From a virus (Duplodnaviria; Heunggongvirae; Uroviricota; Caudoviricetes): a DNA stretch of 26,162 nt. This document shows positions 931-1,084 of the stretch, one piece after another. A program made the position numbers and the translations under genes. The stretch's first letter is position 1. The number at the start of each line of letters is the position of its first letter. The stretch lies in the IMG/VR virus record IMGVR_UViG_3300028965_000026; one strand, written 5' to 3'. Under the pieces are notes generated by a model. It saw only the letters and a list, made by a program, of their open reading frames with translations. It was not told the DNA's origin and made no database searches.

Positions 931-1006
931 GCCGACTTAGCTCAGCAGGCAGAGCAACTGACTTGTAATCAGTAGGTCACCAGTTCGATTCCGGTAGTCG
1001 GCACCA
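931..1006 (+). tRNA. tRNA-Thr (anticodon UGU)
   Basis: 76-nt cloverleaf: acceptor stem GCCGACT/AGTCGGC, anticodon stem ACTGA/TCAGT with loop CTTGTAA (anticodon TGT), T-arm GGTTCGATTCC-like, 3' CCA encoded. Closely resembles the E. coli thrU-type tRNA as I recall it. Confidence 0.9.
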
Positions 1007-1009
1007 TAT

Positions 1010-1084
1010 GCGGGTATCGTATAATGGCTATTACCTCAGCCTTCCAAGCTGATGATGCGGGTTCGATTCCCGCTACCCGCTCCA
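1010..1084 (+). tRNA. tRNA-Gly (anticodon UCC)
   Basis: 75-nt cloverleaf: acceptor stem GCGGGTA/TACCCGC, anticodon stem TCAGC/GCTGA with loop CTTCCAA (anticodon TCC), discriminator U then CCA. Near-identical to the E. coli glyT-type tRNA as I recall it. Only 3 nt separate it from the preceding tRNA. Confidence 0.9.

Follow-up and report, generated by a model that had tools for sequence, protein, structure and literature searches.

A tRNA-Thr/tRNA-Gly pair of host ancestry precedes the phage lysis genes

We analysed a pair of transfer RNA (tRNA) genes at positions 931-1084 of the IMG/VR virus record IMGVR_UViG_3300028965_000026; the whole of this stretch (26,162 nucleotides, nt) is referred to as the window, and all window features given by position lie on the + strand. 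An initial annotation, made from the letters of the DNA, had read the locus as tRNA-Thr(UGU) and tRNA-Gly(UCC) separated by 3 nt, and this reading was confirmed by both ARAGORN and Rfam. When the whole 26-kb window was scanned with ARAGORN, only two tRNA genes were found, tRNA-Thr(tgt) at 931-1006 and tRNA-Gly(tcc) at 1010-1084, and the Rfam tRNA model (RF00005) matched them with 69.8 bits and 65.6 bits, respectively (E ~1e-13 for both genes), well above its gathering score of 29. The 3-nt spacer (1007-1009) reads TAT, and the CCA ends are encoded in both genes.

The tufB operon of Escherichia coli K-12 (thrU-tyrU-glyT-thrT-tufB) was used as the host reference. As had been suggested in the initial annotation, the tRNA-Thr gene is of the thrU type (74/76 positions identical) and the tRNA-Gly gene of the glyT type (73/75 positions identical). 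The tRNA-Thr carries two D-loop differences, U16C and U20C, while the sole change in the tRNA-Gly is a compensatory one that converts the acceptor pair C6:G67 into U6:A67, and this change is common to several other prophage copies. The anticodon arms of both tRNAs are identical to those of the host, the differences being confined to positions 16 and 20 (Thr) and 6:67 (Gly). The synthetase identity elements are G1:C72, C2:G71, G35 and U36 for tRNA-Thr and C2:G71, G3:C70, U73, C35 and C36 for tRNA-Gly, and in our alignments all of these positions were the same as in the host genes.

The likeness to the host operon is limited to the tRNA genes themselves. In the host, coaA lies upstream of the operon, tyrU lies between thrU and glyT, and thrT and tufB lie downstream, whereas none of these neighbours accompanies the pair: no tyrU, thrT or tufB was found in the window, as had been noted at the outset, and the promoter and flanks of the phage pair are unrelated to those of the host operon. 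The genomic setting differs as well, the host operon being next to coaA and the window pair being inside a prophage whose sister site is at serT. Downstream, the expected phage late genes are present, with holins and an endolysin followed by terminase, portal, capsid and tail genes, and the prophage is of a lambdoid type, its head being lambda-like, its tail contractile and its lysis cassette of the phiP27 type. Both tRNA genes descend from thrU and glyT of the tufB operon and move from phage to phage within a small self-contained cassette, and the pair is almost certainly phage cargo.

The pair belongs to an accessory cassette in the prophage interior

The Q gene, the late promoter and the ends of the source prophage lie outside the window, and their positions were inferred from three near-identical loci, namely L021 and L023 (two other chromosomes) and the prophage of E. 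coli CEA224S (L007). These loci stand in for the source genome, as no exact match was obtained either for 40 nt across the AraC/cassette junction in the genome contigs or for the K88-like protein of the window. The CEA224S prophage is 99.6% identical over 94% of the window length and is, by annotation, a complete lambdoid prophage inserted between yccA and serT. Its genes run from a yccA-adjacent integrase through an exonuclease, dicB, repressor/cro, replication genes, Kiwa-like genes and RusA to a 273-amino-acid antiterminator, an AraC-type gene, the holins, the endolysin and the head and tail genes, followed by serT and hyaA. Alignment of the window to this prophage paired positions 1-572 with L007 24812-25383 (the end of the AraC gene) and positions 1496-3000 with L007 25390-26902 (beginning just before the holin), so that window 573-1495, a segment of 923 nt with both tRNA genes inside, corresponds to 6 nt in CEA224S. 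This indel indicates that the pair belongs to an accessory cassette deep inside the prophage, away from its boundary; the integrase end of the CEA224S prophage lies ~18 kb upstream of the cassette position. In L021 and L023, the antiterminator, AraC gene, cassette and holin are contiguous and 99.3% identical to window 1-2284 and 1-2675, respectively, and the packaging and head module of L023 is unrelated to that of the window. Among eight prophages that carry exactly the holin of the window, five have both tRNA-Thr and tRNA-Gly, one has tRNA-Gly only and two have neither. In this respect the cassette behaves as a moron, being present or absent between the same neighbour genes in closely related prophages, and the pair sits downstream of Q (as placed by the near-identical loci) and upstream of the holin on the strand of the late operon.

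The initial annotation had left room for a second possibility, namely that a rearranged host tRNA locus marks the prophage boundary here, with the phage integrated in or next to tRNA-Gly. tRNA genes are common phage attachment sites, and the near-identity of the pair to host thrU and glyT would be in keeping with such an origin. In addition, a recent preprint on prophage Pas small RNAs (sRNAs) treats nearby tRNA matches as integration hotspots. However, in the near-identical loci the cassette position is flanked by phage genes, with Q and the AraC gene upstream and the lysis genes downstream, yccA and serT mark the ends of the sister prophage, and the empty site of K-12 reads yccA-serT-hyaA with nothing in between and with no Thr or Gly tRNA gene there. 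Moreover, the cassette moves among phages that differ in Q, in the lysis cassette and in the structural module. The attachment (att) repeat that a boundary at tRNA-Gly would leave was not seen: when the whole window was searched for the final 25 nt of tRNA-Gly with up to 3 mismatches, the gene itself was the only match, and no long direct repeat in the window involved the tRNA region. Neither of the two hallmarks of a tRNA attachment site, an adjacent integrase and a duplicated tRNA 3' end, was found in the window. The absence of an adjacent integrase had been offered as an argument for phage-borne tRNAs; no integrase was found within the window, and because the window is cut at both ends (in the AraC gene on the 5' side and in a tail-fibre gene on the 3' side) this observation is weak by itself, while the conclusion drawn from it holds. 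We regard the boundary explanation as effectively refuted and the phage-borne interpretation as supported by the interior position of the cassette in L021, L023 and CEA224S and by the presence of the pair in phage PhiR47_1.

The same pair occupies the region between Q and lysis genes in many phages

The distribution of the pair was examined in 5,426 complete E. coli genomes using a 166-nt query spanning both genes. This query matched 6,581 places in 5,425 records, which is ~1,150 places beyond one per record, with up to 6 per genome. In nearly every genome the query found the host operon, matched in two pieces that are joined, and since the search merges host thrU and glyT into one place, the genome counts for adjacent pairs are bounds only. 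Single-piece adjacent pairs, annotated as tRNA-Thr and tRNA-Gly, are present in many chromosomes, the pair together with the leader of the window was found in 72 genomes, and the NCBI pipeline routinely annotates the pair in hundreds of genomes.

The pair is also found in deposited phage records, including those of phi467, vB_EcoS-683R6, 606R7, 689R5, PhiR47_1, JLK-2012 and SerU-LTIIb, where it is always preceded by Q, a methylase gene or stx and followed by the lysis genes. The same slot is used in prophages Z0117, E24377A, A36, Trh52 and AH19B041. Some phages carry longer arrays (Met-Thr-Gly, Met-Lys-Thr-Gly or Asn-Thr-Gly). The spacer of the pair is TAT in all phage copies except that of PhiR47_1, where it is TGT. 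PhiR47_1 is a plaque-forming phage of a published panel whose deposited complete genome holds the pair, indicating that infectious relatives carry it. The phi467 and vB_Eco records were left out of the evidence on packaged DNA, as assemblies of host genomes are at least part of their source: ybtQ and mtfA are found in the 606R7 record, and the mapping of phi467 used whole-genome sequences. With the window pair, a type of feature described before is seen in a new phage background, since tRNA-Thr and tRNA-Gly genes adjoining the S gene have been described for the Shiga toxin (Stx) phage phi467, of the Stx2f type (PMC7366253, PMC5189129).

Altered copies were also seen. In PEC41 (L001, 12880-12964) and in L020 (9282-9356) only the tRNA-Gly is retained, and in PEC41 the Thr position holds unrelated sequence while the TAT junction before Gly is kept. 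In SerU-LTIIb (L013, KU052038), an LT-IIb prophage fragment with two Thr-Gly modules, one module has at 1122-1194 a Thr-type tRNA body with the anticodon TCT that is annotated as tRNA-Arg, an apparent anticodon switch on a thrU-derived tRNA.

The cassette has a methylase remnant, a predicted promoter and a structured trailer

At the left edge of the cassette we identified the decayed 3' end of a DNA (N6/N4) methyltransferase gene (688-756), which comprises the last 23 codons and contains an internal stop. In tblastn searches, the methylases of Z0117 and E24377A (residues 325-347 of 349) matched this segment with 74% identity (E 3e-7), and the methylase of phiP27 matched it at E 4e-5. An intact methylase gene is found immediately before the pair in Z0117, E24377A, AH19B041 and SerU-LTIIb, and in phiP27 a methylase gene lies directly before the ileZ-argO tRNAs, an arrangement resembling the putative ancestor of the window cassette. 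The remnant indicates that the cassette was imported from a methylase-tRNA context such as that of phiP27, Z0117, E24377A and SerU-LTIIb.

A consensus scan predicted a sigma-70-like promoter at 841-868 (TTGAAA, 16 nt, TAATAT; 9/12 consensus matches), ~62 nt upstream of tRNA-Thr. In 9/9 homologous leaders the pattern TTGnnn-16-TAnnAT recurs, placed at -86 to -94 relative to the 5' end of the tRNA, while the sequence of the 16-nt spacer diverges. Between the predicted promoter and the tRNAs, RNAalifold placed a leader hairpin at 877-927, in which AGUUCC (877-882) pairs with GGAACU (922-927) over 6 base pairs, and this stem ends 3 nt before the 5' end of tRNA-Thr. The outer and the inner pair of the stem are each altered on both sides in some copies, with G-C changed to A-U in the window and C-G changed to U-A in 683R6, Trh52 and AH19B041.

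Downstream of the tRNAs, genome matches, RNAalifold and Rfam pointed to an RNA-like element at 1195-1486 that is conserved, structured and unannotated and ends in an intrinsic terminator; it is referred to here as the trailer. The terminator consists of a stem at 1448-1466 followed by a run of eight T and is predicted to span 1448-1475. By sequence, the cassette is predicted to have both a promoter (841-868) and an intrinsic terminator of its own. The trailer was matched in 301/5,426 complete E. coli genomes, and no annotated feature lies under any of the 15/15 matches listed. In four further prophages it begins ~110-190 nt 3' of tRNA-Gly, despite different Q genes and lysis cassettes. RNAalifold predicted 79 pairs, 8 of them compensatory, in a long hairpin and a branched domain. 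An open reading frame at 1182-1439 was considered and rejected as a protein gene, as it had no Pfam match and an implausible composition, and a non-coding element is favoured. A smaller hairpin with a T-run lies at 1132-1153, between tRNA-Gly and the trailer.

The trailer resembles the STnc100 family. In a scan of positions 550-1660 with Rfam, only weak sub-threshold matches were obtained besides the tRNAs; the STnc100 model (RF02076) aligned at full length with 19.8 bits to the window and 22.9-36 bits to its relatives, compared to a gathering score of 47, and it aligned at full length and on the correct strand in 5/6 trailer copies. The top score of 36 bits belongs to a diverged second trailer copy in AH19B041 that lies upstream of its tRNAs and is homologous to the trailer (nhmmer E 8e-27). 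The trailer may thus be a distant, sub-threshold relative of STnc100, which is to be taken as a lead and not as membership of the family. According to the preprint on prophage Pas sRNAs, STnc100/PasD is a phage-associated family of small RNAs known from the Q-lysis region, and like its members the trailer is a prophage-borne, terminator-ended RNA element of that region. The window element differs in having an extra 5' long hairpin of ~85 nt, and a link with tRNA genes as a single unit has not been described for STnc100/PasD. In L025, ARAGORN reported an odd 'tRNA-Tyr (ata)' at 9562-9643, between the STnc100-like element and the holin, which may be a decayed tRNA or a false call.

Two further terminator-like hairpins were found by a terminator scan before the holin (1496-1626; stems at 1496-1513 and 1601-1616, each with a T-run), and both are also present in the tRNA-less CEA224S prophage. 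Together with the trailer terminator, three terminator-like hairpins stand within 180 nt (1448-1626) just upstream of the first holin gene. A row of this kind would fit strong termination that is overridden only by Q-modified polymerase.

It is possible, and we propose this tentatively, that the pair and the ~290-nt trailer form one promoter-to-terminator unit in which tRNA processing, by RNase P at the 5' ends and by endonucleolytic cleavage and trimming at the 3' ends, would free an STnc100/PasD-like regulatory RNA. What is mildly new at this locus is that the pair is closely linked, in one promoter-to-terminator cassette, to an STnc100-like RNA that carries no annotation.

Codon usage and the function of the tRNAs

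In order to relate the tRNAs to codon demand, codon usage in the late genes of the window (26 genes, 6,621 codons) was compared to that in 64 host genes (18,612 codons), a baseline that is a sample from K-12 and the CEA224S flanks and not a whole genome. ACA+ACG were used 1.89-fold (p 9e-14) and GGA+GGG 1.91-fold (p 2e-14) as often in the late genes as in the host sample, and when codons were ranked by absolute excess, GGG was 2nd, ACG 3rd, GGA 7th and ACA 9th. The early genes of the sister prophage were likewise enriched, 3.5-fold for ACA and 1.9-fold for GGA. In E. coli, tRNA-Thr(UGU) and tRNA-Gly(UCC) are encoded by one gene each, thrU and glyT, with which the K-12 operon is consistent, and given a single host gene per isoacceptor, each prophage copy doubles the gene dosage.

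The following course of events is proposed. In the lysogen, the sigma-70 promoter of the cassette would transcribe the tRNAs and the cassette terminator would stop transcription, while upon induction, Q-modified RNA polymerase from the upstream late promoter would read through the cassette and its terminators into the lysis and structural genes. In either state, the cell would have additional copies of two tRNAs for which E. coli has a single gene each, which would raise the decoding capacity for ACA/ACG and GGA/GGG, codons about twice as frequent in the phage as in host core genes. The identity and position of the tRNAs, the mobility of the cassette and the codon bias are shown by the data, and we infer that the tRNAs would be expressed and processed and may confer a fitness benefit; codon or tRNA-dosage supply is the most likely selected function of the pair, to which we give about an even chance. 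Two observations weigh against it. The CEA224S prophage has the same late genes and codon usage without the cassette, which indicates that the tRNAs are dispensable for this phage type, and AGA/AGG are enriched more strongly by ratio (3.9-fold), yet no tRNA-Arg is carried.

The same data bear on other accounts of why the pair is there. If host DNA captured long ago had simply persisted in the recombination-prone Q-lysis slot, with no benefit to phage or host, one would expect sequences so near to those of the host that they add nothing qualitatively new, presence that varies between near-identical prophages, and degraded or altered copies, all of which were seen (only Gly in PEC41 and L020, and one changed anticodon in SerU-LTIIb). 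Such a neutral history nevertheless appears unlikely to us, because the changes in the tRNA-Gly stem and in the leader stem are compensatory, the promoter hexamers and their spacing are kept while the spacer diverges, the ~1,150 places in excess of records are spread over many phage backgrounds, and the codon demand fits the two anticodons. A role in counter-defence, with spare tRNAs replacing host tRNAs cut by anticodon nucleases, is suggested by work on phages T5 and T4, in which phage tRNAs reportedly rescue infection from tRNA-cleaving defences. We rejected it as the main explanation and consider it very improbable, since the anticodon arms are identical to those of the host tRNAs and the phage copies would be cut likewise; to our knowledge, no defence nuclease targets the tRNA-Thr(UGU) or tRNA-Gly(UCC) isoacceptors.

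The tRNAs might, instead, serve mainly as processing signals, with RNase P and 3' processing cutting one transcript and freeing the STnc100-like RNA, a role that is compatible with codon supply. There is a precedent in the glyW-cysT-leuZ operon, whose 3' external transcribed spacer (3'ETS-leuZ) gives a functional small RNA. At the present locus, the trailer follows tRNA-Gly in every examined copy of this lineage, the consensus scan found no promoter-like site between tRNA-Gly and the trailer, one conserved promoter is predicted upstream and one terminator at the trailer end, and the trailer fold is conserved with its compensatory pairs. Against this, the hairpin and T-run at 1132-1153 could end some transcripts before the trailer, the second, diverged trailer copy of AH19B041 lies upstream of the tRNAs, and phi467, 606R7 and PhiR47_1 have the pair without a trailer, so that processing as the main role is in our estimation rather improbable. 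Taken as a whole, the locus is probably best explained as accessory cargo of a lambdoid E. coli prophage, host-derived and moving between phages in the Q-lysis slot, with codon supply as its most likely function.

Other genes of the window

The window opens within the 3' part of an AraC-family regulator gene (2-550; Pfam HTH_AraC E 5.9e-14, HTH_18 E 1.4e-13) that is cut by the window start. In L021, L023 and CEA224S the gene is complete at 246 amino acids and directly follows the antiterminator gene, and it is a prophage accessory gene located between Q and the tRNA cassette. The regulator may be comparable to the AraC-like regulators PatE, PsrA and PsrB encoded by prophages of enterohaemorrhagic E. 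coli.

The lysis cassette (1642-2679) consists of a holin, whose gene starts at 1642, a second holin and an M15 endolysin (PHROG E 4.9e-43, 1.5e-38 and 3e-74, respectively), and its DNA is 95.5% identical to that of the Stx2e phage phiP27. After the lysis genes come genes for lambda-type small and large terminase subunits, portal, S49 protease, and decoration and major capsid proteins, and these head genes are followed by a contractile tail module with sheath, tube, tape measure and gpD-like proteins; the 3' end of the window falls inside a tail-fibre gene. A lone, full-length homologue of the K88/F4-type fimbrial subunit (3971-4795, +; Pfam Fimbrial_K88 E 2.7e-58) lies after the lysis cassette and before the gene for the small terminase subunit, with no chaperone or usher gene nearby. 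This protein has no PHROG family and is 'hypothetical' in the CEA224S annotation, and L021 has a 260-amino-acid homologue at the same place. The S49 protease/scaffold gene (9307-10923) contains overlapping repeats at 10290-10796 (+) with a period of 138 nt and 80-83% identity. In the early region of the sister prophages, a Kiwa-type anti-phage pair (KwaA and a KwaB-like gene) was found at L007 19048-20687 and L021 2594-4233.

Comparison with known systems and significance

Lambdoid and Stx phages classically carry tRNA genes in the interval from Q to the lysis or toxin genes. The closest counterparts of the window pair are those of phi467 (LN997803), PhiR47_1, JLK-2012, vB_EcoS-683R6 and SerU-LTIIb, which have the same anticodons, order and late-operon orientation and lie just before the lysis genes; the phi467 leader also has the promoter and leader stem seen in the window. 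The copies of phi467, 606R7 and PhiR47_1 match host thrU/glyT exactly and have no STnc100-like trailer, whereas the window copies carry C16/C20 and U6:A67. The neighbours differ too, with an AraC regulator and a phiP27-type lysis cassette in the window and stx2f and S/R/Rz in phi467. A similar position is taken by ileZ-argO in phiP27 and by ileZ-argN-argO in Stx2 phages such as 933W, in the same slot after Q and a methylase gene and before toxin or moron and lysis genes. These tRNAs are for Ile and Arg and lie upstream of stx, whereas those of the window are for Thr and Gly with no toxin gene downstream. The ileZ-arg tRNAs of Stx phages, 933W included, have been proposed to supply tRNAs for host-rare codons, the same role as that suggested here. 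T4-like phages carry tRNA-Gly(GGA) and tRNA-Thr(ACA) with the same decoding and ~84% identity to the window tRNAs (ime09 carries both), but these lytic myoviruses have them in a cluster of 8-10 tRNA genes that are diverged from the host genes and do not occupy a Q-lysis slot.

The junction of the pair offers a hint of its origin. In K-12, thrU is followed by a T and glyT is preceded by AT, which together give TAT, and the junction could have arisen by loss of tyrU with its spacers in one clean deletion of 206 nt; the evidence is weak, as by our own estimate the chance of such agreement is ~6% when any split of the three bases is allowed.

The appropriate label for the pair is prophage cargo, and neither chromosomal tRNA operon nor attachment site, a point of little import beyond correct annotation. 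The CEA224S indel provides a natural control for the effect of phage-borne copies of single-copy host tRNAs on burst size and on the translation of horizontally acquired genes. The linkage of the tRNAs to the trailer bears on how prophage small RNAs arise and on the integration-hotspot reading of the Pas sRNA preprint, and contrary to that interpretation the tRNAs of this cassette are phage cargo. If the pair and the trailer do form a single unit, the cassette would be a mobile, phage-borne counterpart of sRNAs derived from tRNA operons such as 3'ETS-leuZ, and the tRNA matches around prophage sRNAs would be co-transcribed cargo and not the scars of integration.

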